Below, one piece after another: positions 15,249 through 52,270 of a stretch of 54,187 nt of DNA. The notes beneath the pieces were generated by a model. The model searched no databases. It was not told where the DNA came from and was given only the letters and a program-made list of their open reading frames with translations. Each line of letters opens with the position of its first letter. Position 1 is the stretch's first letter. The translations under genes were made by a program, and so were the position numbers. Source of the stretch: a virus (lineage: Duplodnaviria > Heunggongvirae > Uroviricota > Caudoviricetes); IMG/VR virus record IMGVR_UViG_2821091796_000001, positions 64,001-118,187 of that record; one strand, written 5' to 3'.

Positions 15249-15948
15249 TACACATGACGCCAGAATGTCGCCCCTAGAGGACGACATTCTGGTTTGGCAC
15301 ATCGTCGGTAAACCTTTGCTTGAACACGAACTGGAGCTCTTCGCATCCAAGTGGTTCGACTATCGTGAATTGACCCCGCTCGCGGCAACCCGCCGTTACA
15401 TCGACGTTTACGGGGAAATCTACAAGCGCCATTTCGCCGAAAATCTGGACAGCAGAGCCGCTCAATATGTCAAACCACTCACTGTCGAAAAGGTGTTTGA
15501 CGGTCTTGCCCAAGGCTTGCGCAAATACAAGCGATGGTTCATCGGATTTTGGCGTGGCCGCCAGGTCGCTGACGCACTTGGGATGCCCTATCATCTCTAC
15601 ATCGACCTCGCACTGAAGTTCCGGATGCGATACTGGAATCAGCGCCACCTTCCACAGCCGGAACATCTATTTGGCGAACTCGACGTCGAGAAGATTCAAA
15701 AGCGTTGGGAGGAGATGCAGTCAACGCGTCTCTATCTGTCGGACGAGCCAGCTTACATAATGCAAAATTATCGCGGAATCGGCCATCAGGACGATTATCA
15801 CGAGTGGCTAATGAAGCAGGCGGGACTGCGTTCCAATCCGCCTGAGTTTCTGGCGCGTTTTGTCAATGACGACTTGCTGCCCTTGGAGAAGATTGAGAAC
15901 CGCTATGACGATTTCATGGTCGAGCGCGTCAATCGCTATCTCCAGTAA
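15232..15948 (+). CDS. Hypothetical phage protein
   Basis: 238-aa ORF overlapping phoH end; no recognised motif. Confidence 0.7.
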   Translation: MELTRNTHDARMSPLEDDILVWHIVGKPLLEHELELFASKWFDYRELTPLAATRRYIDVYGEIYKRHFAENLDSRAAQYVKPLTVEKVFDGLAQGLRKYKRWFIGFWRGRQVADALGMPYHLYIDLALKFRMRYWNQRHLPQPEHLFGELDVEKIQKRWEEMQSTRLYLSDEPAYIMQNYRGIGHQDDYHEWLMKQAGLRSNPPEFLARFVNDDLLPLEKIENRYDDFMVERVNRYLQ

Positions 15949-15973
15949 CACTCCTACGAGCAAACGCTATAAT
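15948..15973 (+). promoter_or_regulatory. Phage-type promoter (upstream of Hfq-like gene)
   Basis: ACACTCC-N11-GCTATAAT. Confidence 0.7.
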
Positions 15974-16008
15974 TGAACACAGACGCACGATAAGCGAAGG
16001 ATTTTGAT

Positions 16009-16341
16009 ATGCGCGAACAATTCAACAAACAACAGGTTTTCGACCTTCGAGACAAGCAGGCTGCACGTCCTGTGCGTCAGAAGCTCGGGTTTCCTGGCAA
16101 GAGCAAAGAGAAGCGCTGGTCCCATCAGGATGATCTGGATCGCCTCGTTGGTAAAGAAATCAGCGTTGCGATAATCCTGTCAGGTGTCGAAAAGTATGTG
16201 AAGGGCACGCTACTTGCTGCCGATCAATACTTCATCAAGCTATCACTTCCATTGGTGGATTTGATGACTGGCTCTCCGGTCGATAATTCTATTCGTGTAT
16301 ATAGTAAATCAATTATTATTTACTTTTCTGAGGTTAAGTAA
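16009..16341 (+). CDS. Sm/LSm-fold Hfq-like RNA-binding protein
   Basis: HQDDL..., VKGTLLAADQYFIKL and RVYSKSII align by eye with Hfq LQDPFL, LQGQIESFDQFVILL and MVYKHAI. Confidence 0.6.
   Translation: MREQFNKQQVFDLRDKQAARPVRQKLGFPGKSKEKRWSHQDDLDRLVGKEISVAIILSGVEKYVKGTLLAADQYFIKLSLPLVDLMTGSPVDNSIRVYSKSIIIYFSEVK
16304..16323. promoter_or_regulatory. Palindromic operator copy 6 (inside 3' end of Hfq-like CDS)
   Basis: GTAAATCAATTATTATTTAC, one mismatch, 18 nt before helicase start. Confidence 0.6.
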
Positions 16342-17703
16342 GTGTCGGAAGTCGAGGAGCTAGAAGCGCCAGCCACAGAGACGACGGAAACCGAGGCGAC
16401 GAAGTTCGACTTCGACAATGCTTTCCAGCGCAAGGTCGCGGCACTCACGATCCGCGACACGAAGTTTGCGCAACGCACAAAAGACCTGATCAAACCGGAG
16501 TATTTCACGGAAGACGCGATCGGCACGGTCGTCAGCATCGTTCATAATCACGTGAAGGATTACAAGGCGGTTCCGGATCTCTCGATTCTGCCAACAATCA
16601 TTCGCGATGCGATCAGAGCTAAGAAGATCCGTTCGGATCTGGTCGAGGGCGTGAAGGAGATCATCAAGTTCTCGCTGAAGGCTGATCTGTCGAACCCCTT
16701 GTTCGTTACCAACAAGGTAGTCGATTTTGCGCGTCATCGCGCAATCGAACAGGCAATGGTCGATAGCATTCCCCTTCTGGAGAAGGGTGACTTTAAAGCG
16801 ATCGAGGCGCTGCAAAAGAAAGCACACTCGGTTGGTGCCCAAGCTGATGGCCAAGACTACGATTATTTTGAAGAGATCGAGAGCAGAACCAAGCTGCGCG
16901 ATGACTTCAAACATGGCCGCATCCTCCGGCGAGGTATAACGACCGGCGTGTCCGAGCTCGATGCCCATCTTTATCATGGCGGATGGGGTCGGCAGGAAAT
17001 GTCGTTGCTCATGGGCGCCGCCAAATCCGGTAAGACGCTCGGCCTCGGTGAGTTCTCCAAGAACGCTTCTCTGGCCGGCCACAACTGTTTCTACGCATCC
17101 TGCGAAGTGTCTTGCGAGATTATCTCGGATCGTCTCGATGCCGCGCTCTCAGAGACCGCTATGCGGCTTTTGAAGGACGACTACGAGACCGTTAAGCGTA
17201 AGATTAAAGCGGCGCAGGCGAGGGCCGGCAAGCTTTTGATGCGCAACTTCGCTTCTGGTGCGCTGAAACCAAGTCAGTTGCACCGGATCATCGACCAGCT
17301 GCGCGCCGATGGAATCCTGATTGATCTGATCACGGTTGATTACGCGGACATCATGGCCGCTGAATATCGCTCGGACAATCTGATCGACAATATGCGCGCA
17401 ATCTATATCGACCTACGTGCGATCGCCTTTGAATTTGATGCTGCGATGCTCACCGCTACGCAAACGAACCGCGAAGGCGCCAAAGCCTCAACAGCGAAAG
17501 CCACAGACGTTGCGGAAGATTTCAACAAGATCCGGACAGCAGATGTGGTGATTTCAATCAATGCGTCGGAAGAAGAACGCAAGTCCAATGAGACGCGCCT
17601 CTTCTTTGCTGCCGCCCGTAACTCGGAAGACGGCTTTACGTTGCGTTTCCGCCAGGATCGCGAGCAGCTTCGGTTCATCAAGAGCTTTCTCGGGAAAGAG
17701 TAG
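16342..17703 (+). CDS. Replicative SF4 helicase (DnaB/gp41-like)
   Basis: Walker A GAAKSGKT, VDYADIM, TATQTNR, AEDFNK motifs. Confidence 0.9.
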   Translation: MSEVEELEAPATETTETEATKFDFDNAFQRKVAALTIRDTKFAQRTKDLIKPEYFTEDAIGTVVSIVHNHVKDYKAVPDLSILPTIIRDAIRAKKIRSDLVEGVKEIIKFSLKADLSNPLFVTNKVVDFARHRAIEQAMVDSIPLLEKGDFKAIEALQKKAHSVGAQADGQDYDYFEEIESRTKLRDDFKHGRILRRGITTGVSELDAHLYHGGWGRQEMSLLMGAAKSGKTLGLGEFSKNASLAGHNCFYASCEVSCEIISDRLDAALSETAMRLLKDDYETVKRKIKAAQARAGKLLMRNFASGALKPSQLHRIIDQLRADGILIDLITVDYADIMAAEYRSDNLIDNMRAIYIDLRAIAFEFDAAMLTATQTNREGAKASTAKATDVAEDFNKIRTADVVISINASEEERKSNETRLFFAAARNSEDGFTLRFRQDREQLRFIKSFLGKE

Positions 17704-18795
17704 ATGGAAACCAAAGATATCATCAAGGAATTTGACCTCGAATATCTCTTCGAGGTCGAAAGCCTGCCATACAAAAAGGCGAGAGGGCGCTCTGGCATGC
17801 AGATCAACGCCAAGCATTGTCCTGCGTGCGGCGACTCCCGCTGGCGTGTCTATCTCAATGCCGATTCAGGCGTGGGAAACTGCTTTGTGTGCAACAAGAC
17901 ATACACCAAGCTTTCTTTCATCCATGAGCATCTGGGTCACGGTGACAAGGAATGGGGTGCAACGTTCAAAGCCTGCAAGGATATGCTCAAAGACATGGGT
18001 TATCGACCGCGGCGCACGATCACGGCGGCGGTTATTGATACGCCGACCGTTAAGCTTCCATATTCCTTTGCACTACCTACCGACGAAGGAGAGAACCTTC
18101 AATATCTTGAGCAGCGCGGTATCGACGCTTCAATGGGGAAATATTTTCACCTGCGCTTCTGCGAATACGGCTTTTGGCAATATGTGAACGAAGACGGCGA
18201 GAAAGTAATGCAGCGGTTTGACAACCGCGTGATCATTCCAGTCTATGACATAGAAGGAGATCTCGTCACGTTTCAAGGTCGTGCAATCACGACGGATAGC
18301 GAGAAGAAGTATCTCTTTCCCGCCACACTTCCAGGCACCGGCCGCTACCTGTTCAATGGACAAAACGTTCTTGCTACAAGTGAAGCCGCTATGGGCGAGG
18401 GTGCTTTCGACGTTGTTGCCATGAAGATGGCGTTTGATGATGACAATGCGCTTCGTCATGTCGTGCCGATTGGGTCCTTCGGCAAAAACCTGTCCTACGG
18501 AACACTCGACGGCAATGATCAACTCGGTGCGCTCGTTAAGCTAAAGGCGAGGGGACTTAAGCGGTTGACCATAATGTGGGACGGCGAGCACAAAGCCCTA
18601 ATGTCGGCGTTGAATGCTGCAAAGCTGGTCTCCGGTATCGGTCTCCAGGCGCGCATCGCACTGCTACCACTTGGCAAGGATCCGAATGAAGTGCTGCCGG
18701 AAGTGGTGCGACGCGCATACTTTGAGGCAGTCAACTGGTCGCCAGCGCTCGATATCAAATGGCGCCTTCGAAGTCCCTACCCGGTAAAGTCATAA
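17704..18795 (+). CDS. DNA primase (Zn finger + TOPRIM)
   Basis: CPACG...CFVC zinc finger; GEGAFD and WDGE TOPRIM motifs; KDPNE. Confidence 0.88.
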   Translation: METKDIIKEFDLEYLFEVESLPYKKARGRSGMQINAKHCPACGDSRWRVYLNADSGVGNCFVCNKTYTKLSFIHEHLGHGDKEWGATFKACKDMLKDMGYRPRRTITAAVIDTPTVKLPYSFALPTDEGENLQYLEQRGIDASMGKYFHLRFCEYGFWQYVNEDGEKVMQRFDNRVIIPVYDIEGDLVTFQGRAITTDSEKKYLFPATLPGTGRYLFNGQNVLATSEAAMGEGAFDVVAMKMAFDDDNALRHVVPIGSFGKNLSYGTLDGNDQLGALVKLKARGLKRLTIMWDGEHKALMSALNAAKLVSGIGLQARIALLPLGKDPNEVLPEVVRRAYFEAVNWSPALDIKWRLRSPYPVKS

Positions 18796-18815
18796 ATCAA
18801 TCATTATTGACTTAC
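18796..18815. promoter_or_regulatory. Palindromic operator copy 7
   Basis: ATCAATCATTATTGACTTAC. Confidence 0.85.
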
Positions 18816-18840
18816 TTTCCTATTCAGAACTTGCTATAAA
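18814..18840 (+). promoter_or_regulatory. Phage-type promoter (upstream of WGR gene)
   Basis: ACTTTCC-N12-GCTATAAA. Confidence 0.55.
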
Positions 18841-18871
18841 CGAAACAACACAGAACACAGAGAGAAACAGA

Positions 18872-19408
18872 ATGTCGGTATATCCTATCGATCTTAAGCG
18901 AGTATCGCTCGACCACATGGGCGGCACAAAAAGCTATCATTTCATCCTCGCGATGAATGCAAAAGGTCAATCAATATTGATTAGACGTTGGGGCAAGGTC
19001 AAATCCGAGGGTCAATATAGATTTGAGAAGTTCGCCGATCGTGCAAACGCAGAAAGAGCATTCGGCAAAGCAATGGATGAGCGTGAGCGCAAAGGTTATG
19101 CAGTCGTCAGCCAGAGCGAAACATTCGCCGCTGACAAGGATTCCAACATGACTGCCTTCGGGCGCATGGTGTGGGCCAAGCTTCCTGGCGATGTTGTCAA
19201 TTTTCTCGATCCGGCAATTGACGTGACTGGTCGCAAAGCTGCGCCGGTCAATACGATGGATGAAGACTTCAATCGCCTGCCGGAACAGCCACGTGGCATG
19301 ACTTACACGTCAGAGCAGATTGCAGCGGCCGAGGAAGAGCGCAAAGCCGAAATCGAGCGTCAGAAGCAGTCCAAATACTCAGCGAACCCGAACTTCGGGA
19401 GATTCTGA
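18872..19408 (+). CDS. WGR-domain protein
   Basis: YHFIL...LIRRWGKVKSEGQ...A...F..AM.ERERKGY WGR pattern; ends PNFGRF. Confidence 0.7.
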   Translation: MSVYPIDLKRVSLDHMGGTKSYHFILAMNAKGQSILIRRWGKVKSEGQYRFEKFADRANAERAFGKAMDERERKGYAVVSQSETFAADKDSNMTAFGRMVWAKLPGDVVNFLDPAIDVTGRKAAPVNTMDEDFNRLPEQPRGMTYTSEQIAAAEEERKAEIERQKQSKYSANPNFGRF

Positions 19409-20282: not shown

Positions 20283-20295
20283 AAGGCGTCTAAAA

Positions 20296-21841: not shown

Positions 21842-21867
21842 GCAGTCCCTCTTTTGCTTGCTATAAT
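21842..21867 (+). promoter_or_regulatory. Phage-type promoter of putative sRNA
   Basis: GCAGTCC-N11-GCTATAAT with no downstream credible CDS. Confidence 0.72.
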
Positions 21868-24487: not shown

Positions 24488-24513
24488 ACAGCCCATTAAG
24501 AGACTGCTATAAA
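24488..24513 (+). promoter_or_regulatory. Phage-type promoter (upstream of repressor)
   Basis: ACAGCCC-N11-GCTATAAA. Confidence 0.68.
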
Positions 24514-24586
24514 TATTATTGAAAGCGACGTGTTGGTGGTGCTCACGAAGCTTCATAAGAAAGTGCCTAGAAGGGGCAAATATTCA

Positions 24587-25024
24587 ATGAAAGATGACAA
24601 GATCCGTCCTTACTCACACACGCGTGTGGTGAAGTTCCTGCAAAAGCGCATGGATGAAATCAAACACCGCAAGAGTCAGTATGATATCGCGATGGAAGCC
24701 GGCTATCATAAGCCGAATATCATTTCGATGATGAAGAACGGTGATGCCAAGGTTCCGTTGGAAAAGGTGTTTATCCTGGCAAAGGCGTTCGAAGTCGATC
24801 CCAACATTCTCTTCCGCCTGGCGCTCGAACAGAACTTCGGCCAGCAGGACACTTATGCCCTGACGCAGATGATGAACCGCACGATGACGGAAAACGAACT
24901 CGCTTGGGTTGAGAAAATCCGTGCATATACGGGCGATGCCGACCCTTCGCTCACTCAGGAGCTCGAAAGTGGTTTGGAGAAGCTGCTCGATAATGCCGAG
25001 CGGAAGACAAAGACGCCAGCCTAA
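24587..25024 (+). CDS. XRE-family HTH regulator, candidate immunity repressor
   Basis: KSQYDIAMEAGYHKPNIISMMKNGDAKVPLEKVFILAKAF HTH_XRE pattern; flanked by operators; AAGGGG RBS. Confidence 0.75.
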   Translation: MKDDKIRPYSHTRVVKFLQKRMDEIKHRKSQYDIAMEAGYHKPNIISMMKNGDAKVPLEKVFILAKAFEVDPNILFRLALEQNFGQQDTYALTQMMNRTMTENELAWVEKIRAYTGDADPSLTQELESGLEKLLDNAERKTKTPA

Positions 25025-27681: not shown

Positions 27682-27713
27682 GAGGAGATTGTTAATCGTC
27701 ATTTCCCATATAA

Positions 27714-27733
27714 GTAAATCATTATTGACTTGA
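27714..27733. promoter_or_regulatory. Palindromic operator copy 11
   Basis: GTAAATCATTATTGACTTGA (2 mismatches), directly after TATAAG. Confidence 0.7.
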
Positions 27734-27805
27734 TATCCTAATCAAAAGTCAGTAGTTATTGAAGACAACACAGCGCAAAGCGCACAGAGACGGAGAGAGT
27801 TTCAC

Positions 27806-29053
27806 ATGGAAGATGCAGAGTTGGATCGGTCGCGTATCGTTTGTCAGATCGACGGGGTCGAGGTTCATTCTATCTCGAACCACATCAAGAAAAACTATAG
27901 CGACCCGACCAAAGATTTATGGACCGTCGAGCGTTACAAGACGGAATACCCCGATGCGCCGCTCTATTCAAAGTATGCGCTGCACCTGATCGCCGAAGAG
28001 CGCAAACGCTCCGCCGTGTCTACTGCGTCGGCTGATCCCACCGGCACCAAAAGCCGTGCGAAAGGTCTGTTTCATGAGGTCTTCAGCATGGGTAATGCGA
28101 AGGCGGCCAAATCGTCGCTCGGCAACCCGATTGAGGTTTCAATCCTCGCCAATCACCAGCCGGAAGTCGTTCCCTACCTCGAGCTCGTGGATCCGGACTA
28201 CGTTTTCAACATCGATCTGACCAAGACGGTCATGATGGCGCTTGAGCTTGGCAAGACGCTCTATCTCTGGGGCTATCATGGCACAGGTAAATCATCATTG
28301 ATTGAACAGGTGTGTGCTCGTCTTCGCCGCCCATACATGCGCGTCCAGCACACTCGCGACACTGAAGAGGCTCACATTCTCGGTCAGTGGGTTGTCGCCA
28401 CGAAGGAAGTCGAAGAAGAGGTGATGGACAAAGACGGCGTCCTTCAGAAGACCAAACGCTATATTTCGCAGACTGAGTATCAGCTCGGGCAGCTCGCACA
28501 GGCAATGATACACGGCATGGTCTACTGCGCCGATGAATATGACTATGCGATGCCAGGCGTGATCGCCGCATATCAGGCAGTCCTCGAAGGCAAGCCACTC
28601 GTCATCAAAGACGCACCTGCTGAATATCGCGTGATCAAGCCGCATCCAGAGTTCCGCTTCACTGCAACCGGCAATACGAACGGAACGGGCGACGAAACCG
28701 GCCTTTATCAAGGCACGATCATGCAGAATGCCGCCGCCTATTCGCGCTTCGCGATCACTGAGGAAGTGACATACATGGATGCTGCGACGGAGCAGTCGAT
28801 CCTCATGTCCAAGACCTCCGTGGACGAGGAAGATGCATCGAGAATCGTCCAGTTCGGCAATGCTGTGCGTGACGCCTTCAAGAAAGGCGAGCTGACAATG
28901 ACCTGCTCGCCGCGTGAGCTGATCAACGCCGCAGATAACGGTCTGAACTTCGGAGGAGACTTCATCCGAGGCATCAAGCTTGCGATCACCAACCGCTTCT
29001 CCCGCGTCGATAAGGCAGTGGCGGAGCAGTTTGCGCAGAGGTTGCTCGGCTGA
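27806..29053 (+). CDS. CobS-like MoxR-family AAA+ ATPase
   Basis: GYHGTGKS, CADEYD, ATGNTNG, SRF and SPRELI motifs; paired with VWA gene. Confidence 0.88.
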   Translation: MEDAELDRSRIVCQIDGVEVHSISNHIKKNYSDPTKDLWTVERYKTEYPDAPLYSKYALHLIAEERKRSAVSTASADPTGTKSRAKGLFHEVFSMGNAKAAKSSLGNPIEVSILANHQPEVVPYLELVDPDYVFNIDLTKTVMMALELGKTLYLWGYHGTGKSSLIEQVCARLRRPYMRVQHTRDTEEAHILGQWVVATKEVEEEVMDKDGVLQKTKRYISQTEYQLGQLAQAMIHGMVYCADEYDYAMPGVIAAYQAVLEGKPLVIKDAPAEYRVIKPHPEFRFTATGNTNGTGDETGLYQGTIMQNAAAYSRFAITEEVTYMDAATEQSILMSKTSVDEEDASRIVQFGNAVRDAFKKGELTMTCSPRELINAADNGLNFGGDFIRGIKLAITNRFSRVDKAVAEQFAQRLLG

Positions 29054-29700
29054 TGATCGACTGGAAGGAAAGTGAGCGGAACGTCAATTCGTTTGCTGAT
29101 CGGGTAATGCGCCGGCTTGAACGTGCCGGGGCGCCCCTTCACCTGCGAGAAGATATCCGACAGGAACTCTGGATCGCCTGGTGCAAGGCGCGCGACAGTT
29201 GGAACCCTCAAAAGCAAGCTGCATTCCCGACCTTTCTCTACAACGGGATGAAAATGCACATCAACCGTTGGGCCGAGAAGCACGTCAGTCGCCGGTTTGC
29301 GGAAGTCGTCGCCAAGTCGATCGATACGCCAATGACCGAGGACGGCGCAAAGCTGGAAGAAATCATCCCCTCGGCCGATCCCATGCCGGGTTCAGAGTTT
29401 GAGGAAAACAATTACTGGGAATACGCGATCGCACGCCTGAAGCCACGCGCCAAGCTGTTCATTCAATTGCTGCGCGATCCACCGGCGGAGCTTCTAAAGG
29501 AAGTTGATGCGCTCGACGCCAGAGCCGAGTTCGGCCGTTCCCGAGGCCATACAACATTTACCATGGGCGGTGTCACGACGACGCTGATCTTCGATCTGAT
29601 GGGTGCGCCGCGCTCAGAGCGGGTCAAGATTGCCGCTCAGATCCGCGAGGCCGGCGAAGAAGCAAAACGGAATGCCCATAAACGAGTGCGAGCAATATGA
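29053..29700 (+). CDS. Phage sigma70-family (group 4-like) sigma factor
   Basis: EDIRQELWIAWCKARDSWNPQKQAAFPTFLY region-2 pattern; MGAPRSERVKI region-4-like HTH; TGATG-coupled to AAA gene. Confidence 0.65.
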   Translation: MIDWKESERNVNSFADRVMRRLERAGAPLHLREDIRQELWIAWCKARDSWNPQKQAAFPTFLYNGMKMHINRWAEKHVSRRFAEVVAKSIDTPMTEDGAKLEEIIPSADPMPGSEFEENNYWEYAIARLKPRAKLFIQLLRDPPAELLKEVDALDARAEFGRSRGHTTFTMGGVTTTLIFDLMGAPRSERVKIAAQIREAGEEAKRNAHKRVRAI

Positions 29701-30221
29701 CCGATACGATCCCTCACTTTGCGCCTGGCTGTTTCGGCTCCGCGCTTTCCTTTGACGATGCCCATCCCGTTTGCCGCGGATGCGCCTTCCAGGAACAATG
29801 CAAGCCGCTTCATGCGACCAACCTCTTCGCATTGCGCGCAAGGTGGGGGATCACGACGATGCCTGACGCGCCAAAGGGCGCAACAAAGACCTCTCCGGTC
29901 AATCCGGGCGAGCTTGCTCTGCCGAAAAAGACCCAGGAACTGGTCGATCGCCTTGATCGCTCTAATCTGAACGTTACCGAAAAACTGCAGAAGGGCGAGA
30001 ACCCGTTCGCCGGCACCCTGCCCTTCATGCGCATCGTTGCGCATCTTCTTATCAAACTCGATCGCCCACTTACGCGCCAATTCGTTGCCGCCGCGTTCAT
30101 GACCAAATTCGACTGGCAGCAAAATACAGCAGACGCCCACGCTCGCATGGCCTTCCAGGCACTCGAGCATATTGGCGCAGTGCGAGAAATGAACGGCACT
30201 ATTCAAATCAAGAGGACTTAA
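29697..30221 (+). CDS. Hypothetical protein (N-terminal Cys cluster)
   Basis: CFG...CRGCAFQEQC; ATGA overlap. Confidence 0.65.
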   Translation: MTDTIPHFAPGCFGSALSFDDAHPVCRGCAFQEQCKPLHATNLFALRARWGITTMPDAPKGATKTSPVNPGELALPKKTQELVDRLDRSNLNVTEKLQKGENPFAGTLPFMRIVAHLLIKLDRPLTRQFVAAAFMTKFDWQQNTADAHARMAFQALEHIGAVREMNGTIQIKRT

Positions 30222-30222
30222 T

Positions 30223-33200
30223 ATGCACTCCATCTTAGCAGCTCGAACCGATTTCTCGATCGGCGAGTCGATTATTTCGCCGTCATCGCTCGTTGAAAAA
30301 GCAAAAGAGCTGGGCGCTCGTGCCGTCGGCATTACCGACACCATGTCGTTGACTGGTCTGGTAGATTTTACAACTCGCGCCAAGAAAGCCGAAATTAAGC
30401 CGATCATTGGCGTGCGACTGCGCATGACTGACGGGCCGGAGTGGCGTCCCGACAAGGGGCAAAAGAAGAAGGATATGCCGCCCTACTACTACTTAACGGC
30501 ATATTTTTTGACAGAGGCTGGCCTCAAAGGACTTTACCGGCTGCTGTCCCTCGCAAATTCCGAATCCCGCTTCTACTACGAGAGTAAGCTTGGCTTTGAG
30601 GATCTCTATACGGAACTGGACAATCTGGAGAAGGGCGACATCGCGCTGACCCTTGGCGACGCGCACGGTGTTATCACACATCCTCAAGTCGCCGATATCG
30701 TCACGGAACTTGCGCATCGCGTTGGCTTTGAGAATGTCTACGCCTCACTTATCGCGGTTGATACGCCCTATTTCACACGCATCAACCAGCTTTCACTCGA
30801 GGCGATCGGTCATGGCTGTCAGCCACTTACGGTGCGTCCCGCGTATTACTTCGAAGGTGAGGCTGATGCTCTTGATATCATGGGTGCTGTCGCCAACAAC
30901 GTGAAAATCACCGATGGTTGGTTCAAGTCGATGGACAATCGTGATTTTCACGTCGTCGGCGATGTTGAAATGAAGAAGCATGTCCTAAGTGCAGCCAAGC
31001 GCGTCAGTGCGCGTGGATCATTGGGGGTTGGACCAGCGTTCTCGCAGGGGCTGCTCAATACGGACAAGCTCGCCGAGCGCGTGAGCTACGTGTGGGAGAA
31101 ACAGCCTGTTTCGCTTCCGCAGATGGCGCCAAACGAGTTTCTGGCCGTCGTGGAGCAATGCAAACTTGGCTGGAAGGAACGCTTCTCTGACGCTGTATTT
31201 GGCCACCTTCCGGAAAAGACTGACCTTGCCGGCGTCTACAAGGAGCGTCTCTCCTATGAGCTCTCGGTGCTAAAGAAACTCAATTTCTCAGGCTACTTTC
31301 TCCTCGTTCAAGACGTGGTGAATTATGCGAAATCTAATGGAATTCTTGTCGGGCCTGGCCGCGGTTCTGTCGGCGGTTCTTTGGTCGCTTACCTTATGGG
31401 AATCACTGACTGTGATCCGATCCGTTTCGGACTTCTGTTTGAGCGTTTCATTAATCCTGATCGTATCGACCTTCCTGACGCCGACCTTGATTTCATGTCT
31501 GAACGTCGCCACGAAGTTGTTGAATACCTCATCAAGAAATACGGACAGGCTCGAGTAGCTGGCGTTTCGAATTTTGGCACGCTTGCCGCCGCGTCCTCGA
31601 TCCGAGATATCGGCAAAGCCGTCGGTTTGTCCGAGCGCGACACGAAGTGCTCAAAGGCAGTTCCGAAGCTGCACGGAGCTAACGTCTCCCTGGCAAATTG
31701 CGCGCTGCAGGTCGAGGAGATCCAGGAGTTCGCCGAGAAATACGAGGACAATTGGTGGCCCATCATGTGCCGTCTGGAAGAGACTACGCGCTCATACGGC
31801 CAGCACGCCGCCGGCATTATCGTTGGGGGTGTCGATCTTACGGATCGCGCTGTCATCGAAAAGCGCAAGGAAATGTCTGTCGTCTGTTGGGACAAGCGCA
31901 TCGTTGAGGATCAAGGGCTCGTCAAAATGGATCTTCTCGGGTTGAAAACGCTTGATCTGATCAACCTCACACTCAATTACATCAAAGAGCGGCATTCAAA
32001 ACGCGTCAACATCAACCGGATCCCGCTTGACGATGCGGAAGTGCTGAACAACTTCGCCAAGGGTCTCACGATCGGCATCTTCCAGTTTGAAGGCGGTGGA
32101 ATGCGCCGCTTGCTGAAAGAGCTTGGCAGCGACGGCACAATTACTTTCGATGATATTACGGCCGCAACCGCGCTTTATCGCCCAGGTCCTATGGAATCGG
32201 GAATGATGGACTCATTCTATAAGCGAAAGCAGGGTCGGGAATACATCGAATATGACCATCCATTGATGGAACCGATCCTCGAGCCAACATTTGGCGTGAT
32301 GGTCTATCAGGAACAGGTTATGCAGGTCGCTCGCGCAGTTGCCGGATACTCTGCTCCCGACGCTGACAAGCTACGCAAGATCATGGGTAAGAAATTGCCC
32401 GAAGAAATGGCGAAGGAACGCGGCAAGTTTGTCGATGGTTGTGTTGCGACGATCGGGGCAGACGAAATGTGGGCGGGGCAGCTTTTCGACAAGATTGAAG
32501 GCTTCGCCGGCTATGGCTTTAACAAGAGCCACTCAGTCGAATATACCCTGATCTCATATCAGTCCATGTATCTGAAAACGCACTATCCGGTCGAGTTCTT
32601 TGCCGCCGCGCTGACAGGTATGGATGAGGATAAGTTGCCTGGCATCATTGCGGACGCCGCTCGATTTGGCATCGACGTCTCAATGCCCGATATCAATATC
32701 TCTACCGACAGGTTTGAGATTGCGACAGATGTGCGCTTAGTCATTCCCTTCCAACGCATCAAAGGCGTCGCTGGCACAACGACCCAAGCCATTATCGAGG
32801 CGAGGAAGGCGGGTCCGTTCACGAATAAGGCGGATTTTCTCGATCGCGTGGAAAAACGCCGCTGTAACGTCAAGCATCAAGACGCCCTTGAGCGCGTTGG
32901 TGCGTTCTCTCGCATCGAGCCTGGCTCTGTTCCGGCGACCGATCCCTCGCGTGTGCGTGATCTGATCGAACTCATTCCCGGCCTGATCACGGCAAACGTG
33001 CCAGTGCACCGCGATCTGACGCGCGACAAACACGCGAAGGAAGATATCGTAGAAGTGATCCAAGAATACCGCGCCAAGCACGGTCCATCGACTGGTGATA
33101 GCGATGGACTGCCGGTCAAGCCACATTTCGGTAAGGATGCGACGTTCATGATCATCACCGACTGCCCGACACGCGGCGAGGAAGAGCTTGGATCGATGAG

Positions 33201-33588: not shown

Positions 33589-33607
33589 TTGCCGATGCAT
33601 CCCGCAA

Positions 33608-33634
33608 GCGCTCCTTGAGAGCACTTGATATAAA
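33608..33634 (+). promoter_or_regulatory. Phage-type promoter (weaker match)
   Basis: GCGCTCC-N12-GATATAAA. Confidence 0.5.
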
Positions 33635-33662: not shown

Positions 33663-34202
33663 ATGACGGCCACATTTACGGTCAAGAACTTCATCGACAC
33701 GGCGCAAATGAAACGCGACCTTGCCTATTCCCCTGCCGATCTGTCCAACGCTATGATGCAGCAGGCATCCCTGTTTGCACATTACGGAGTCATCGCTGCA
33801 CAGGCCTCGCGCCAGGTGGATACCGTTAAATTATTGCTTGAATCCACGGAAGCGGCCGTCTATCGCCGTGAACGTGAGACCGCACTCCAAGATGGCGAAA
33901 AACCCACAGTTGCGGATCTCGACAAACGTGTGGCGCGCAACGGCCGTGTCGTCAATATGAAGAAAGCCCTGATTGAGGCAAAACAGATTGAAGCCAACGC
34001 AAAAACTGCCACGGAAGCCTTTCGTCATCGCCGCGACATGCTGATCCAGTCCGGATCTACGGAGCGCGAGGAGATGAAGGGCGAACTTGCAATCTCGGTG
34101 CGCACGGCGCGCGACGAAGCTGCCTCCGAAAGCCGAAACAACCTGCTTGCACGCCAGAAGCAGCGCATGAAGGAGGAAGCTGCAGGATCAGAAAGTTCGT
34201 AA
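33663..34202 (+). CDS. UvsY-like recombination mediator (putative)
   Basis: All-helical; KRDL..S...L.NAMMQQASLFAHY ... AFRHRRDML pattern parallels T4 UvsY; near SSB and RecA. Confidence 0.5.
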   Translation: MTATFTVKNFIDTAQMKRDLAYSPADLSNAMMQQASLFAHYGVIAAQASRQVDTVKLLLESTEAAVYRRERETALQDGEKPTVADLDKRVARNGRVVNMKKALIEAKQIEANAKTATEAFRHRRDMLIQSGSTEREEMKGELAISVRTARDEAASESRNNLLARQKQRMKEEAAGSESS

Positions 34203-34203: not shown

Positions 34204-34229
34204 GTAATCCTCGTTTTTGTTGATATATA
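34204..34229 (+). promoter_or_regulatory. Phage-type promoter
   Basis: GTAATCC-N11-GATATATA, operator follows. Confidence 0.68.
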
Positions 34230-34232
34230 AAA

Positions 34233-34252
34233 GTAAGTCAATAATGATTTAC
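34233..34252. promoter_or_regulatory. Palindromic operator copy 12
   Basis: GTAAGTCAATAATGATTTAC (identical to copy 1). Confidence 0.87.
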
Positions 34253-34531: not shown

Positions 34532-34541
34532 TTTTCCCGAA

Positions 34542-34567
34542 GTAATCCTGAACATTTTCGCTATATA
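34542..34567 (+). promoter_or_regulatory. Phage-type promoter (upstream of SSB)
   Basis: GTAATCC-N11-GCTATATA. Confidence 0.72.
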
Positions 34568-34634
34568 ACGAAATAACGAAATGACGAACGCGTCACGGAG
34601 TTAGTAGCAAAGCGCAAAGTAGAAAGTAGCAAAG
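34566..34634 (+). repeat. Short A-rich tandem repeats in SSB leader
   Basis: TAACGAAA x2 + TGACGAAC; TAGCAAAG, CGCAAAG, TAGAAAG, TAGCAAAG. Confidence 0.7.
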
Positions 34635-38746: not shown

Positions 38747-38772
38747 GTATTCCCGTTTCGTTCTGCTATATA
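38747..38772 (+). promoter_or_regulatory. Phage-type promoter (upstream of ASCH gene)
   Basis: GTATTCC-N11-GCTATATA. Confidence 0.72.
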
Positions 38773-38807
38773 GATGAGTGGATTATCGGGCACAGATCGG
38801 ATCGGGA

Positions 38808-40199: not shown

Positions 40200-40218
40200 T
40201 CAATCAATGATGATTTAC
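40199..40218. promoter_or_regulatory. Palindromic operator copy 13
   Basis: GTCAATCAATGATGATTTAC. Confidence 0.85.
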
Positions 40219-40223
40219 CTGAT

Positions 40224-40249
40224 GCACTCCTGATTGAACGCGCTATAAA
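40224..40249 (+). promoter_or_regulatory. Phage-type promoter flanked by two operators
   Basis: GCACTCC-N11-GCTATAAA. Confidence 0.75.
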
Positions 40250-40268
40250 TAAATCATCATTGATTGAT
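40249..40268. promoter_or_regulatory. Palindromic operator copy 14
   Basis: ATAAATCATCATTGATTGAT. Confidence 0.85.
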
Positions 40269-44443: not shown

Positions 44444-44962
44444 ATGCCTGCGATTACACTCACCGCAACCGGACATCGACATGTCCAACTTCCCAATTGG
44501 CCCCGGATGCGGATGATTGAAGGGCGAACAGAACAGGCCCTTAAATCCATTGTTCAAAACACACTCAATTCCTGCCTGGATTTGGAGTCCTTTGTCAGTT
44601 GCGGCATGTTGGGTTTTGACATGTGCGCCACCGAAGTAGCCATTGAGATCGGCTTGCCAACAACTCTTGCCATTCCCTTTGCAGCATTCGGTTCAAAGTG
44701 GCCGGATGACATGCGCAAGCGGCTCGATCGTATGCTGGAAAGAGCCAAAGAGGTTATCACCGTCTCTAAGGGTCCGTTCTCGCTTGGGAAAATGCGTCGC
44801 GCAAATCATTGGCGCATCGATCGCGCAAATATGGTTGCGGCGCTTTGGGATGGTCGGCCGAGCGATACGAGCGACACCATTATCTATGCATATTCGCGGC
44901 GAGTCCCAGTCCAAAATCTTTATCGAGACTTTGTGAAGCACGCCGATCAATTCTTGATATAA
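44444..44962 (+). CDS. YspA/DUF1273-like SLOG family protein
   Basis: TGHR, GMLGFD..ATEVA, AIPF...W, RANHWRID, ALWDG motifs. Confidence 0.7.
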   Translation: MPAITLTATGHRHVQLPNWPRMRMIEGRTEQALKSIVQNTLNSCLDLESFVSCGMLGFDMCATEVAIEIGLPTTLAIPFAAFGSKWPDDMRKRLDRMLERAKEVITVSKGPFSLGKMRRANHWRIDRANMVAALWDGRPSDTSDTIIYAYSRRVPVQNLYRDFVKHADQFLI

Positions 44963-44963
44963 T
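44938..44963 (+). promoter_or_regulatory. Phage-type promoter
   Basis: GCACGCC-N11-GATATAAT, operator follows directly. Confidence 0.65.
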
Positions 44964-44983
44964 ATCAATCAAATTTGACTTAA
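44964..44983. promoter_or_regulatory. Palindromic operator copy 15
   Basis: ATCAATCAAATTTGACTTAA. Confidence 0.75.
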
Positions 44984-45012
44984 CACACATGGATAAAACT
45001 AAGGAAGTTTTA

Positions 45013-45531
45013 ATGGTTGCAAGACGCACAGTGGGTTTGAAACACGAGCCGGAGTATCTCAAGACAGCAGGCGCGGCGATTGTCGATGCCGTCACCAATA
45101 ACCGCATTGACGATCCGGAGGTTTTCTCGATTGAGGGAACCCCAATGGTCACGCAGAAAACCGAGGACGGTAAATACAAGCAGAAGCCTGGTATTGCTGG
45201 CCAGGAGTTCTTCATGCATGACGCATATGTCGGTGCGCGGGCCGATCTGATTTTCATTCTGAAGCCAGTTGACAGTCAGGACTACGAACACATCGAAGTT
45301 CCGGTCAAAAAGATGGATGTTACCTTCCGACACCCTTCGATGATCATCGCTGGCCATCTCAAAATGGAACCTTCAGCTGAACTCGATACTGCAATGATCG
45401 TCGCCAAACTTTACGGGGAAGCGATGTCCCAAGGTAAAGCTGTCGAAAAGGCTGAGGCCAAAGCGAAGCTGGAGGACAAGCTTTCCAAGCGTGAAGTATA
45501 TTCAAAAGTTCCAAATTTCGGGAGGTTCTGA
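45013..45531 (+). CDS. Hypothetical protein ending PNFGRF
   Basis: AAGGAAG RBS before ATG 45013; TGATG coupling to resolvase. Confidence 0.65.
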   Translation: MVARRTVGLKHEPEYLKTAGAAIVDAVTNNRIDDPEVFSIEGTPMVTQKTEDGKYKQKPGIAGQEFFMHDAYVGARADLIFILKPVDSQDYEHIEVPVKKMDVTFRHPSMIIAGHLKMEPSAELDTAMIVAKLYGEAMSQGKAVEKAEAKAKLEDKLSKREVYSKVPNFGRF

Positions 45532-46106
45532 TGGGATCGATCATTGTTGCCGGTCTTGATGGATCATTACGAAACTTTGGCGTCGCCAAACTCGCTGTCG
45601 ATCTCACCACAATGGCGCTCAGCGTCATCGGGCTGGAGCTGTCCGAGACCGCGAAAGACAAAAACAAACAGGTCCGCAAATCCTCGGATTTGTTTCGCCG
45701 AGCCCAGGAGAACCACGCAGCCGTTGTCGATGCGGTGAAGGACTGCACAGTCTGCTTCGCTGAAATCCCCTCTGGAGGGCAGAGTTACGACGCTGTGATC
45801 GGCTTCGGCATTACGATCGGTGTCTATGCGTCGCTTCCGATCCCGCTGATTGAGGTCTCGCCGGCCGAAACGAAGCTCGCTGTGCTTGGCACTCGAACAG
45901 CCTCGAAAGAGGAAATGATCGAATGGGCTTATGCGACCTATCCAGATGCTCCATGGAAAACGCAAAAGCGCGGTGGAGTTATCGTTCCGACTTTAAAGAA
46001 CGAGCATCTTGCGGATGCATGTGCAGTTGTCCATGCCGGAATCAAAACGCCGCAATTCAAGCAGGTTTTGGCCATCCTCAAGGCGAATGAGAAACTCGTC
46101 GCATAA
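45531..46106 (+). CDS. RuvC-like Holliday junction resolvase
   Basis: AGLDGSLRNFG, FAEIP, P.ETKL, HLADA motifs. Confidence 0.82.
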   Translation: MGSIIVAGLDGSLRNFGVAKLAVDLTTMALSVIGLELSETAKDKNKQVRKSSDLFRRAQENHAAVVDAVKDCTVCFAEIPSGGQSYDAVIGFGITIGVYASLPIPLIEVSPAETKLAVLGTRTASKEEMIEWAYATYPDAPWKTQKRGGVIVPTLKNEHLADACAVVHAGIKTPQFKQVLAILKANEKLVA

Positions 46107-46128
46107 TCCTTTATGTCAAGTCTACAAT
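46103..46128 (+). promoter_or_regulatory. Phage-type promoter (RNR operon)
   Basis: ATAATCC-N11-TCTACAAT, operator follows directly. Confidence 0.6.
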
Positions 46129-46148
46129 GTAAATCATTATTGATTTAC
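46129..46148. promoter_or_regulatory. Palindromic operator copy 16
   Basis: GTAAATCATTATTGATTTAC. Confidence 0.87.
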
Positions 46149-46204
46149 TATATGAAACCCCTCCCCTTTTGGAGGGGATTTCCTTCTCAGATCGCAGGTA
46201 ACAA

Positions 46205-47176
46205 ATGCTCTTTCAAGAACAAGTGGCGCGAAAGCCAAATCTCTACCCTTGGACTCAGGATTTCATCGACAAGATTTGGGCTGGATTCTGGACGCCAAAC
46301 GAGTTCAATTTTAAGGGCGACTACGGCCAATTTAAAACGGCTCTATCGCAAGAGGAACGGCTGATTATCACCCGGACCCTGTCGGCGATCGGTCAGGTCG
46401 AGATTGCGGTAAAAAAGTTCTGGGCTTTGCTTGGCGACAACCTGCCTCATCCGGCGATCGCAGATCTTGGCGGCGTCATGAGCCACTCGGAAATCATTCA
46501 TAACCTCGCCTATATCAAGCTGCTCGACAAACTTGGTCTCGATGACGTGTTTGAAGAAAACCTGAAGGAGCCCGTCGTTAAGGGCCGCGTCGAATATCTG
46601 CGCAAGCATCTGGCGAAGGTCTATGGCGACGACAAGAAGCAGTATGTGTATTCCATCATCCTTTTCACGCTGTTCGTTGAGAACGTCAGCCTGTTCTCGC
46701 AATTCTATACGATCCTATGGTTCAATCGCTTCAAGAACGTCCTGAAGGATACGGCCCAGCAGGTGCAATACACGCGCAATGAGGAGCTTCTCCACGCGCA
46801 GGTCGGTATCAAGATCATCAACACGCTGCGAGAAGAATATCCGGAACTGTTCGACGCGGATCTGGAGCAGCGCATCAGCGAAGCCACGCACGCAGCTTAC
46901 GCGTCCGAATGCGCGCTCATCGATTGGATGATCGGATCCTACGAGCGCGACGGACTGTCTGCAGATCTCCTCAAACAATACATCGCCAAGCGGATGAACG
47001 ATAGCCTCGCCGCTATCCGGTTCGCACCGCAATTCGTCACTGATCCCGCTTCCATAGCCAAGACATATTGGATGGATGAAGAGCAGTTCGGAAACAATAT
47101 GACCGATTTCTTTCACAAGAAGCCGGTCGAATACGCAAAGAAAAACAAAGCCTACGAAGTAGAGGATCTATTCTGA
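46205..47176 (+). CDS. nrdB: Ribonucleotide reductase class I beta subunit
   Basis: FWTPNE, EIAVKKFW, SEIIH..AY, ENVSLFSQF, RNEELLH and DFF motifs. Confidence 0.92.
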   Translation: MLFQEQVARKPNLYPWTQDFIDKIWAGFWTPNEFNFKGDYGQFKTALSQEERLIITRTLSAIGQVEIAVKKFWALLGDNLPHPAIADLGGVMSHSEIIHNLAYIKLLDKLGLDDVFEENLKEPVVKGRVEYLRKHLAKVYGDDKKQYVYSIILFTLFVENVSLFSQFYTILWFNRFKNVLKDTAQQVQYTRNEELLHAQVGIKIINTLREEYPELFDADLEQRISEATHAAYASECALIDWMIGSYERDGLSADLLKQYIAKRMNDSLAAIRFAPQFVTDPASIAKTYWMDEEQFGNNMTDFFHKKPVEYAKKNKAYEVEDLF

Positions 47177-48819: not shown

Positions 48820-48865
48820 AGCGGTCTAGACCAACTTTTTCAACAGAGTTGTTGTGTCGATTCAC

Positions 48866-49034: not shown

Positions 49035-49189
49035 TTCGCGTCACAGTGTTTCACTACCTCTGACATGGAATAACTTGAGCATAGATTGCAAGCCTCTGAG
49101 CGGTCAAACATTGAGTTAGCCACAGCTTGCGCGCTTATTTCACTGTATTCTGCGCAAAGCACTCCCGAAAATTTCTATTGAATCCATGA

Positions 49190-49215
49190 GTAGCCCTGAA
49201 TGATTCTGCTATAAG
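49190..49215 (+). promoter_or_regulatory. Phage-type promoter
   Basis: GTAGCCC-N11-GCTATAAG, overlaps operator. Confidence 0.75.
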
Positions 49216-49234
49216 TAAATCAGCAATGATTGAT
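49215..49234. promoter_or_regulatory. Palindromic operator copy 17
   Basis: GTAAATCAGCAATGATTGAT. Confidence 0.78.
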
Positions 49235-49251
49235 TATACTCGGGAGACAGA

Positions 49252-50593: not shown

Positions 50594-50618
50594 TTATACC
50601 TCAAACCAGGAGAACCAA

Positions 50619-50882
50619 ATGAAACGAAACTTCGTATTTGTGGCTACGGCAATTGCCACATGTGCCATATTGGTTGGATGCGGCGTCGATCCGCAGAAAG
50701 CAACTGCGGCATTGAACGCACAGGGGATATCGGACGTGACCATTGGAGACCATGCCTTTTTCGGCTGCGGCGAGAGTGACAGTCGGGCGTCAGAATTTAG
50801 AGGAACTGGCGCAAACGGGAAGCCGGTAACTGGTGTCGTCTGCTCGGCTTGGCTCAAAGGTATAACAGTCCGCTATGACTGA
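50619..50882 (+). CDS. Small phage lipoprotein
   Basis: AGGAG RBS; lipobox LVGC; FFGCGESD...VTGVVCS. Confidence 0.75.
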   Translation: MKRNFVFVATAIATCAILVGCGVDPQKATAALNAQGISDVTIGDHAFFGCGESDSRASEFRGTGANGKPVTGVVCSAWLKGITVRYD

Positions 50883-51090: not shown

Positions 51091-51101
51091 AAAGACCGAC
51101 A

Positions 51102-51569
51102 ATGAGCATTTATACCCTTCCTGTTAAGGTTCAGCGCACGCATGAGCGTGCCAAACTTCCCGTCTACAGCTCTAAGGAAGCTGCCGGCGCCGACCTTCAT
51201 GCCATGATCAACAACAAGATTGAAAAAGAAGTAATCGCGCCGGGACAAACCCGTCTGATTCAGACCGGTCTTAAGATCGAACTGCCGGAAGGCACCGAAG
51301 CACAAGTTCGCTCACGATCCGGTCTGGCGCTCAAGAAGTCGATCATTGTGTTGAACGCGCCGGGCACTATCGACAGTGACTATCGCGGCGAGATTGGCGT
51401 GATTATTCACAATGCTGGCAATGAGGACTTCTGGGTCAGCCATGGCGATCGCATTGCCCAATTGGTAATTGCGCCTGTTCTGCGCGGCGTCTTCGAGGAA
51501 GCGGCCGAGATTCAGTCCATCACTGATCGCGGCGAAGGTGGCTTTGGCTCAACTGGGGTGCAAAGCTGA
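51102..51569 (+). CDS. dut: dUTPase (trimeric)
   Basis: AAGADL, RSRSGLA, GTIDSDYRGEI, GDRIAQLV and RGEGGFGSTG motifs. Confidence 0.96.
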   Translation: MSIYTLPVKVQRTHERAKLPVYSSKEAAGADLHAMINNKIEKEVIAPGQTRLIQTGLKIELPEGTEAQVRSRSGLALKKSIIVLNAPGTIDSDYRGEIGVIIHNAGNEDFWVSHGDRIAQLVIAPVLRGVFEEAAEIQSITDRGEGGFGSTGVQS

Positions 51570-52189
51570 TGCTCTATGGTCTGACTGGCGCTCACAGATC
51601 CGGAAAGACCACGCTCGGCACAGCCCTTGCGGAGGATCTGGAAGGCTTGCACTTCCATGCAACTTCTACAACCGCAGTAGCCAAAGCGCACGGCTTCGAT
51701 CCGGTGGCTCCCATGAGTCTGGCCGAACGGCTGAAATTGCAGCGCATTCTGCTTTCCGATCATATCAAGACGGTCCAAGCACTTCCGCGACCATTGGTGG
51801 TCGATCGCACGCCGCTCGACTATCTCGGCTATCTCCTTGCAGAGTTCAACATGACCTCGGCCAGGAACACGACGCCCGAGGTTCTCGACGAGGCAACCAG
51901 CTTCGTCAATGAATGCCTGGACGCCGCACTGACCTATTACGACATGATCTTCTATCTTTCGCCGCTTCCAAGCTATGAGGCGGCGGAGGGTAAGCCGGAT
52001 CTAAACAAGCCGTTCCAGTGGCACCACGCACTCCTGGTGCAAGGCTCTCTGGCGATGCTCGAAGGTCGGCTGCCCTATATGATCATCGAGGATACAACAC
52101 ACGACTTCCGGCGCGATTTCGTTCAGAACCAGATTGTCGAGCGCATGGACCACATTGATATCATGACCCGCCAGAGTCCCTATCAATAA
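51569..52189 (+). CDS. P-loop kinase / AAA_28-like ATPase
   Basis: GLTGAHRSGKTT; DRTPLDYLGY; YDMIFY. Confidence 0.75.
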   Translation: MLYGLTGAHRSGKTTLGTALAEDLEGLHFHATSTTAVAKAHGFDPVAPMSLAERLKLQRILLSDHIKTVQALPRPLVVDRTPLDYLGYLLAEFNMTSARNTTPEVLDEATSFVNECLDAALTYYDMIFYLSPLPSYEAAEGKPDLNKPFQWHHALLVQGSLAMLEGRLPYMIIEDTTHDFRRDFVQNQIVERMDHIDIMTRQSPYQ

Positions 52190-52192
52190 AAG

Positions 52193-52212
52193 GTAAATCA
52201 TTATTGACTTAC
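52193..52212. promoter_or_regulatory. Palindromic operator copy 18
   Basis: GTAAATCATTATTGACTTAC; contains -35 TTGACT of TTGACT-17-TATAGC (52204-52232). Confidence 0.87.
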
Positions 52213-52243
52213 AAATGACGCTTGGATATAGCGTTTGCCACAA

Positions 52244-52270
52244 GCATTCCGATAATGCTCGCGTTATAAA
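52244..52270 (+). promoter_or_regulatory. Phage-type promoter
   Basis: GCATTCC-N12-GTTATAAA, operator follows directly. Confidence 0.65.

Follow-up and report, generated by a model that had tools for sequence, protein, structure and literature searches.

The window analysed here is a stretch of 54,187 nucleotides forming the final 54 kb (positions 64,001 to 118,187) of the 118,187-bp contig of IMG/VR virus record IMGVR_UViG_2821091796_000001 (GC 0.53), part of a 5.97-Mb assembly with a GC content of about 0.565. It carries a class of promoters that have no -35 hexamer and display CC boxes instead. The contig codes for phage structural genes and for a replication module comprising CobT, CobS, a DnaE-UDG fusion, a gp32-like SSB, ribonucleotide reductase and rIIA. 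Related to it are Rhizobium phages of 115-122 kb (RHEph10, B1VFA and RHph_N1_10) and plasmids of Shinella, Sinorhizobium (pLM21S1), Pararhizobium and Methylobacterium. As these relatives are called phage-plasmids in the literature, the contig is taken to be a whole rhizobial phage-plasmid of the RHEph10/pLM21S1 family, hereafter the element. A near-identity DNA search of plasmids with the element gave no match, and the promoters and sigma factor are nowhere mentioned in the literature found by a search on the element family. Coordinates are those of the window unless marked "contig", which denotes whole-contig numbering.

The motif of the class has three parts: a -10 element Y-G-C-T-A-T-A-A-W, a proximal box RYAnYCC with its CC at -27/-26, and a distal CC box in about half of the sites. 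A palindromic operator (AGTAAATCAAT/ATTGATTTACT), found in about 45 copies on the contig, begins directly 3' of the -10, across the expected start site, in 6 of the 13 window sites proposed by an earlier sequence-only reading. These 13 sites are listed here with a strong one at 15160 that the reading overlooked; scores are those of the weight matrix described below.

15160 to 15185, + strand: promoter 15160 (20.4 bits), ACACTCCT-N-GCTATAAC, upstream of open reading frame (ORF) 15232-15948
15940 to 15973, + strand: promoter 15948, with distal CC at 15942, proximal ACACTCC and -10 GCTATAAT; heads 16009 (110 amino acids), the DnaB-like helicase and then a 363-amino-acid ORF (17704-18795)
18814 to 18840, + strand: promoter 18814, with a 12-nt spacer and an operator just upstream (18793); heads the WGR-domain gene at 18872
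21842 to 21867, + strand: promoter 21842, GCAGTCCC-N-GCTATAAT, followed by ORF-less DNA; candidate for a possible non-coding RNA
24488 to 24513, + strand: promoter 24488; heads the HTH_3 gene (24530-25024), whose leader is about 10 nt long, and opens the block HTH-CobT-CobS-sigma-partner-dnaE
33599 to 33634, + strand: promoter 33608, with distal CC, 12-nt spacer and GATATAAA; heads 33663-34202
34204 to 34251, + strand: promoter 34204, with an operator (34234-34251) overlapping the expected start site
34534 to 34567, + strand: promoter 34542, with distal CCC; heads the gp32-like SSB gene at 34638, with ACGAAA repeats in the leader
38747 to 38772, + strand: promoter 38747, heading the ASCH-like gene at 38778, possibly leaderless
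40216 to 40267, + strand: promoter 40224, the top score (25.6 bits), GCTATAAA, with an operator at 40250-40267; its boxes are a plain direct repeat, ACCTGAT / TCCTGAT, 11 bp apart (40216-40235)
44938 to 44982, + strand: promoter 44938, GCACGCC and GATATAAT, with an operator at 44965-44982
46103 to 46147, + strand: promoter 46103, the weakest, TCTACAAT; precedes the ribonucleotide reductase genes and has a perfect operator (46130-46147)
49182 to 49233, + strand: promoter 49190, with distal AATCC, proximal GTAGCCC, GCTATAAG and an operator at 49216-49233
52236 to 52289, + strand: promoter 52244, with distal CC, 12-nt spacer, GTTATAAA and an operator at 52272-52289; heads the rIIA-like gene at 52286

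The class is confirmed as real and phage-specific. Every one of the 13 sites is present where the sequence-only reading placed it, with the spacing it described between CC and G[CA]TATA: 11 nt in 10 sites and 12 nt in three (18814, 33608 and 52244). Its remark that TTGACA is absent from -35 is equally upheld, as TTG at -35 to -33 occurs in 0/13 sites for spacers of 16 to 19, and the best TTGACA match averages 2.7/6 at these sites versus 2.6/6 at random positions. A two-block weight matrix was trained on the 13 window sites and tested by leave-one-out, scoring 12 of them at 12-24 bits and 46103 (TCTACAAT) at only 1.5 bits. In the matrix search of the full element and host that the reading had called for, the first 64 kb of the contig, outside the window and never shown to the model behind that reading, served as held-out set and contains 9 matches of at least 14 bits, versus 0.32 per 64 kb in the host chromosome. 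The loose pattern CC-N11/12-G[CAT]TA[TC]A[AT] has 20 occurrences in the window, all but one on the + strand, versus 3.75 ± 2.2 in first-order Markov simulations. In total the contig has 26 sites of at least 12 bits, all at the head of a gene or gap and oriented in the direction of transcription except 4860, which lies within a gene; most are 31-102 nt 5' of a start codon preceded by a GAGAGA-type ribosome-binding site. The position of the 13 sites at the head of a gene or small RNA holds for 11 of them, situated 31-102 nt before an ORF start, and fails for 21842 and 34204, where no convincing ORF follows.

Some transcript leaders have features of their own. Directly 3' of promoter 34542, the leader of the SSB gene (34568-34600) contains three ACGAAA(T) units spaced 8 bp apart. 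At the HTH_3 and ASCH-like genes (24506-24532 and 38765-38780) the -10 is separated from the called GTG start by no more than some 10-17 nt, and no Shine-Dalgarno sequence is present; the mRNAs may have little or no leader, unless the start codons are miscalled. Between the 46103 promoter/operator and the ribonucleotide reductase genes, a strong GC hairpin at 46157-46177 (CCCCTCCCC-TTTT-GGAGGGG) could be an attenuator or leader structure.

Position counts were made on the best 26 contig sites aligned on the -10. Every site has T-12 and A-11, and nearly every site T-10 and A-9; G-14 occurs in 25/26, C-13 in 20/26 and Y-15 in 24/26 sites. Position -7 is unconstrained, with 15 A and 8 T. The proximal box spans -32 to -26 and includes C-27, present in 25/26 sites and flanked by Y-28 and C-26; A-30 is found in 18/26. 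Further upstream C-38 occurs in 18/26 sites, with A/T before it. The distal CC lies exactly 11 bp 5' of the proximal CC in 13/27 sites contig-wide and in 6/13 window sites. The information content has maxima at -27 and -38, each some 5 bp away, in opposite directions, from the position usually contacted by sigma region 4.

The -10 element is of the type used by the host housekeeping sigma factor. The host reference was taken from the host rRNA promoter and published consensuses; a de novo derivation from CTTGAC anchors in ORF-poor host DNA gave no usable signal. The rRNA promoter of the host reads TTGACA, a 17-nt spacer and CTATAT. The rhizobial consensus is CTTGAC-N17-CTATAT and that of Agrobacterium CTTGNN-N18-TATNNT (PMC3384568); the Caulobacter RpoD consensus is TTGaCgS / GCtANAWC (PMC8144410), and GCTATAAY agrees with its -10 at every position. 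The -10 half of a housekeeping promoter is thus present (YGCTATAAW, 26 sites) and the -35 half, CTTGAC or TTGNNN at 16-19 bp, is found in 0/13 sites. Compared with alphaproteobacterial RpoD promoters, the class is alike in the -10 region, including C-13 and G-14, and differs by the CTTG -35, missing from 13/13 sites, in place of which stand CC boxes that are absent from the host chromosome. The partition promoter of the element (contig 32542) has CGCTATAAA without CC boxes. Readings of the motif as a sigma-54 (GG-N10-GC) or FliA (GCCGATAA) promoter were discarded, the letters and the spacing being a misfit. Promoters with a complete host-type architecture are also found on the element, one of them in the window:

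10194 to 10223, + strand: host-type promoter, CTTGAT-N17-TACTAT with an operator within the spacer, in the late-gene region

The arrangement CTTGAW-N17-TACTAT with an operator in the spacer is confined to the late (structural) region, where it recurs at contig 47027 (in ~47015-47050) and 50694 (in ~50680-50715). The Shinella relative has four promoters of the CTTGAW-N17-TACTAT type with its own operator in the spacer. Because the element builds ordinary host promoters elsewhere, the missing -35 of the class looks deliberate.

Direct repeats with a 10-11-bp period around the -35 position, which the class has, are the layout of promoters activated by lambda CII. Promoters PRE, PI and PaQ of lambda (TTGC-N6-TTGC around -35) and PhoB pho boxes similarly have such repeats at a poor -35 upstream of a usable -10, a likeness which suggests that an activator binds along a single face of the DNA. 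The class departs from the CII promoters by its repeat sequence, its size (about 26 members versus 3) and a distal repeat restricted to about half of the sites; CII itself (PF05269) gives only sub-threshold matches in the assembly (E 0.09 and 0.74). The CC boxes might alternatively be targets of a negative regulator, either a second repressor or a nucleoid-type silencer, whose removal would leave the -10 to fire alone. They do overlap the region occupied by polymerase, and the element already favours site-specific repression, as seen from its dispersed operators and ParG-type boxes. We nevertheless consider such a role very improbable: direct repeats flanking an empty -35 are the classic activator layout, a promoter with neither -35 nor activator would be weak, and boxes and master operator occur together in 6/13 sites, where one of the two controls would be redundant.

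The spacing of the CC boxes is conserved in the family. The position of the upstream CC was tallied for every G[CA]TATA[AT] of each genome. Its frequency at 11/12 nt is 37/31% here, 43/69% in the Shinella plasmid, 21/45% in B1VFA, 21/60% in pLM21S1, and 60/40% and 82/5% in two Methylobacterium plasmids; a second CC peak appears at 22-24 nt in the element and its relatives. In the host chromosome CC is flat at 6-7% over 1213 GCTATAW sites. The CC(-27)/CC(-38)/GCTAT layout is kept in seven alphaproteobacterial relatives of about 115-122 kb, weakly in RHEph10, and is also displayed by three distant metagenomic members. RHEph10 combines the layout with a shifted -10, [GT]CTATTnT (GCTATTCT), and has only a weak CC peak; searches for GCTATAA under-detect the class in this phage because of the variant -10. 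Examples of this variant, as [GT]CTATT[CT]T behind a CAACCCG box, are at 27374, 35097, 44690 and 45640 of RHEph10. The proximal box drifts among relatives, from GYAnTCC here to GCAACCC in Shinella, GCACTCC in B1VFA and pLM21S1, and GAAAACCC and GAAACGCC in the Methylobacterium plasmids. GCTAT is constant across them while the palindromic operator differs markedly per lineage.

Two adjacent genes of the block opened by promoter 24488 code for candidate readers of the motif:

29053 to 29700, + strand: sigma-like gene (215 amino acids), with a region 2 like that of extracytoplasmic function (ECF) sigma factors and a region-4-like helix-turn-helix; candidate reader or co-reader
29697 to 30221, + strand: partner gene (174 amino acids), overlapping the sigma stop codon; candidate CC-box binder

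The sigma-like protein matches Pfam Sigma70_r2 with 26.1 bits (cut-off 24) and TIGR02937 below its cut-off. Its region 2 has the ECF-type motif F-x-T-[YF]-L-Y. The structural model displays two domains and a disordered linker; the C-terminal domain is helical and includes a conserved stretch resembling a helix-turn-helix. The structural neighbours of the model in the PDB are all sigma factors, with weak E-values. The protein accordingly has region 2 of the sigma-70 family and a predicted region 4, the latter from the model and the conserved motif only. Its family comprises 155 cluster representatives at E<1e-30, of which those sampled share the same synteny.

The partner gene adjoins the sigma gene in every alphaproteobacterial member looked at. 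Its product has four invariant N-terminal cysteines, C-x13-C-x2-C-x5-C, a spacing that we take to recall iron-sulfur sites, and a C-terminus confidently modelled as a winged helix with MarR, Fur, BlaI and linker histone as neighbours. It hits no Pfam family even at E<=10. No anti-sigma domain is detected in the partner by sequence; PDB sequences give no credible match to it, an anti-sigma FlgM row at E 1.5 being noise. The sequence-only reading had proposed that the class is recognised either by the sigma-like protein or by a MotA-like activator acting with host RpoD. The core shared by both, the need for an element-encoded factor, is supported by the comparative data; a MotA, AsiA or CII homologue is not found, the searches for MotA (PF09114) and AsiA (PF09010) giving no match in the whole assembly at E<=1. 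The genes common to six alphaproteobacterial relatives and absent in the Escherichia coli phage Cyrano hold no other transcription-type candidate except HTH_3 (24530), whose product more likely binds the palindromic operator instead. The winged-helix partner, overlooked by the sequence-only reading, is the better candidate for reading the boxes.

The sigma gene is present in all six alphaproteobacterial plasmids with this CobS, and none of the 982 other CobS-matching plasmids, gammaproteobacterial among those listed, appears among the sigma tblastn matches. Two gammaproteobacterial members provide sigma-less controls. In Cyrano, DnaE comes directly after CobS; no sigma gene is found by protein, Pfam or PHROG search, and matches to the weight matrix equal random expectation. 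The Aeromonas plasmid also lacks the sigma gene and has a remote homologue of only the winged-helix half of the partner (hhalign probability 81%), without the cysteines. When intergenic DNA was tested in a uniform way, the CC was at 27-38% in six members with the sigma gene versus 4-11% at control spacings; the values are 11% versus 5% for Cyrano, 4% versus 9% for the Aeromonas plasmid, and 11% versus 9% for RHEph10, where the variant -10 leads to under-detection. Look-alikes of the CC box at the CobT, CobS and UvsY promoters of Cyrano and of the Aeromonas plasmid are no commoner than at control spacings and were not retained as members of the class, though they remain a caveat. The sigma gene and the motif thus co-occur, as do lineage and host with them; this is a correlation and not a proof.

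These comparisons bear on the idea that host RpoD needs nothing from the element, acting alone on an extended -10 or with a host activator, and that the CC boxes tune promoter strength or link it to a host signal. The host-type -10 with its G-14 in 25/26 sites would fit, as would the class promoter heading the HTH gene, whose product may be needed in the plasmid state, the few look-alikes at orthologous CobT and UvsY promoters of the sigma-less E. coli relative, and the fact that the box differs most between relatives of different host genera. We find this idea improbable. No CC excess exists at this spacing among the 1213 host GCTATAW sites, and the Cyrano and Aeromonas look-alikes have chance frequency. 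In relatives the T of an extended -10 (TGn), present as T-15 in 16/26 sites here, is not conserved and is mostly replaced by C. No repressor operator accompanies about two thirds of the class sites, and host factors sufficing at these would make lytic replication genes constitutive in the plasmid state.

The sigma-like protein might instead replace RpoD, its region 2 reading GCTAT(AA) and its region 4, or the partner, reading the CC boxes. It is plausibly a true sigma factor, given a region 2 above the Pfam cut-off, a region-4-like domain and structural matches to sigma factors only, and a sigma factor needs targets. The class is the only abundant promoter type of the element that is not host-like: a dyad and 7-mer search of intergenic DNA for a third class, with class sites and operators masked, returned only ACGAAA repeats, ribosome-binding sites and hairpins, although a class of 1-4 members could escape it. 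Sigma gene and motif both occur in the alphaproteobacterial lineage, and the gammaproteobacterial relatives examined have neither. The proximal box of some relatives, GCAAC or GAAAC, resembles an ECF -35, and the universal core reduced to GCTAT, with -7 free and GCTATTCT in RHEph10, would suit a short ECF-style -10. T4 late promoters (TATAAATA) are a precedent for a phage sigma factor that can use a host-resembling -10. In the other direction, the -10 of the class agrees with the consensus of host RpoD at eight positions, G-14 and C-13 among them, and region 2 of the protein is of the ECF type. ECF sigma factors have no region 3, which is the reader of G-14, and the -10 motifs that they usually recognise are short and contain GC. 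With its centre at -28, the box is about 5 bp nearer the -10 than region 4 sites are known to be; a further box is found at -38, and a single region 4 cannot read the two. The box-less partition promoter, moreover, uses the same -10. As to ECF promoters proper (GGAAC-like -35, CGT-like -10, 16-17 nt apart), a GnAAC-like box is seen in some relatives only, and its AAC, at -30 to -28, is about 5 bp too near the -10, which is AT-rich and host-like. The class resembles promoters of phage sigma factors (SPO1 gp28 middle, T4 gp55/gp33 late, phiEco32 gp36) in being phage-specific, here next to an ECF-sized sigma-like protein with a coupled gene, and shares with ECF promoters the GnAAC box of some relatives; it differs by a -10 not distinct from that of the host, by a box about 5 bp nearer the -10 than in ECF promoters and by an adjacent gene with no anti-sigma domain by sequence. 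On balance we hold a replacement of RpoD to be possible and rather unlikely.

The sites are most likely early/middle promoters of the phage-plasmid, dependent on an element-encoded factor. Such a factor appears to be needed because the sites have no -35, because the class is absent from the host, and because most sites are operator-free yet head lytic replication genes; something else than the operator must then silence these in the plasmid state. We tentatively favour the hypothesis that host RpoD drives the class together with an element-encoded protein that binds the boxes, the winged-helix partner being the first candidate. It is preferred to the sigma-like protein replacing RpoD because the -10, with its G-14 and C-13, is that of the host consensus and is shared by the box-less partition promoter, and because the information peaks flank the position of region 4, of which a single copy could not read both boxes. 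According to this hypothesis, polymerase would open DNA at the RpoD-type -10 (Y-G-C-T-A-T-A-A-W), most likely read by host RpoD. An element protein would bind the two CC boxes one helical turn apart, at -27/-26 and about -38/-37, flanking the empty -35, and once bound would recruit or stabilise polymerase. The prime candidate binder is the winged-helix product of 29697-30221 together with the translationally coupled sigma-like product of 29053-29700. Derepression of an operator-guarded operon would first yield this factor, which would then switch on the approximately 26 promoters. Operators are present before CobT, before CobS and inside CobS, all upstream of the sigma gene, and a cascade from repressor to sigma/partner operon to promoter class would fit their positions. 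The sequences themselves show the motif with its enrichment and conservation, the missing -35 and the gene pairing, whereas the binding of the boxes by a protein, the identity of this protein, the sigma factor used and the order of events are inferred.

The region 27690-27735 comprises a hairpin after CobT, then an operator (27715) with a -10-like element CATATAAG, followed by CobS and the sigma gene. The same gap in B1VFA and pLM21S1 contains CTTGCA/CTTGCG-N18-TAAT and an operator. In these two relatives the CobT-CobS gap is likely a host-type, repressor-controlled promoter of the sigma operon.

Several facts weigh against RpoD acting with the winged-helix partner. The distal box exists in only about half of the sites. 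Foldseek matches of the partner to winged helices are weak (E 0.05-0.4), and a fold of this kind does not always serve DNA binding. With RpoD as the reader, the sigma-like protein is left without an evident regulon. A class promoter heads the HTH gene that opens the sigma block, and a metagenomic relative has a class look-alike directly before CobS; with class promoters ahead of the sigma block, some of them would have to fire before the factor accumulates, or the factor would activate its own synthesis. The link of sigma and partner to the motif is also fully confounded with lineage and host, as all alphaproteobacterial members have both and gammaproteobacterial members have neither sigma nor class; the three distant sigma homologues (E ~1e-34 to 1e-41) are all in CobT-CobS-sigma-partner-dnaE synteny.

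A close known parallel to RpoD acting with an element-encoded box binder is that of T4 middle promoters, in which the MotA box is combined with AsiA-remodelled sigma-70. Both classes have a host-type -10, no -35 and a phage box near -30, 11-13 bp from the -10; the proximal box of the element, at -32 to -26 with its 11-12-nt spacer, has the placement of a MotA box. Both also serve genes of replication and nucleotide metabolism. They differ in the box, TTTGCTTTA in T4 and RYAnYCC here, in the second box one helical turn upstream, found only here, and in the genes involved, MotA/AsiA in T4 versus sigma-like and winged-helix genes here. More speculatively, the sigma-like protein and the four-cysteine winged-helix protein, the latter possibly an iron-sulfur protein, may be an undescribed two-protein device that redirects polymerase to CC repeats around an empty -35. 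This doubtful but conceivable device would parallel, in alphaproteobacteria, the sigma appropriation of T4 or the sigma factors made of two subunits, with a possible link to the nearly CC/GG-free cassette of the element family.

Two other sequence features of the contig were observed. A stretch of about 1.1 kb at contig 29571-30687 has only two CC/GG dinucleotides, a curious composition beside a promoter class defined by CC. A conserved inverted repeat of about 90 nt, TTCCCnCGCC...GGCGnGGGAA, is situated at contig 44968-45080 upstream of a small-terminase-like gene and is found twice in the Shinella plasmid (13973-14125 and 40852-41027).

The analysis newly adds a distal box phased at 11 bp, controls on held-out DNA, on the host chromosome and on two relatives lacking the sigma gene, a contrast between the class and the late promoters of host type, a box that drifts next to a fixed -10, and the winged-helix partner in the role of candidate reader. 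Phage-plasmids of this family, about 117 kb in size, occur widely in Rhizobiales, metagenomes containing 155 clusters of the sigma factor, and their gene regulation is not known to have been studied. The class defines an early/middle regulon of about 26 units that includes the helicase, SSB, ribonucleotide reductase, rIIA and accessory genes, and its motif enables annotation of transcription units and non-coding RNAs across the family. A circuit of three layers is proposed, in which a master repressor would control the sigma/winged-helix operon and this operon the CC-box promoters. If the winged-helix or the sigma-like protein does read the boxes, it would represent either a novel family of activators or a sigma specificity not seen before, and the class would offer compact, host-orthogonal promoters for use in rhizobia.

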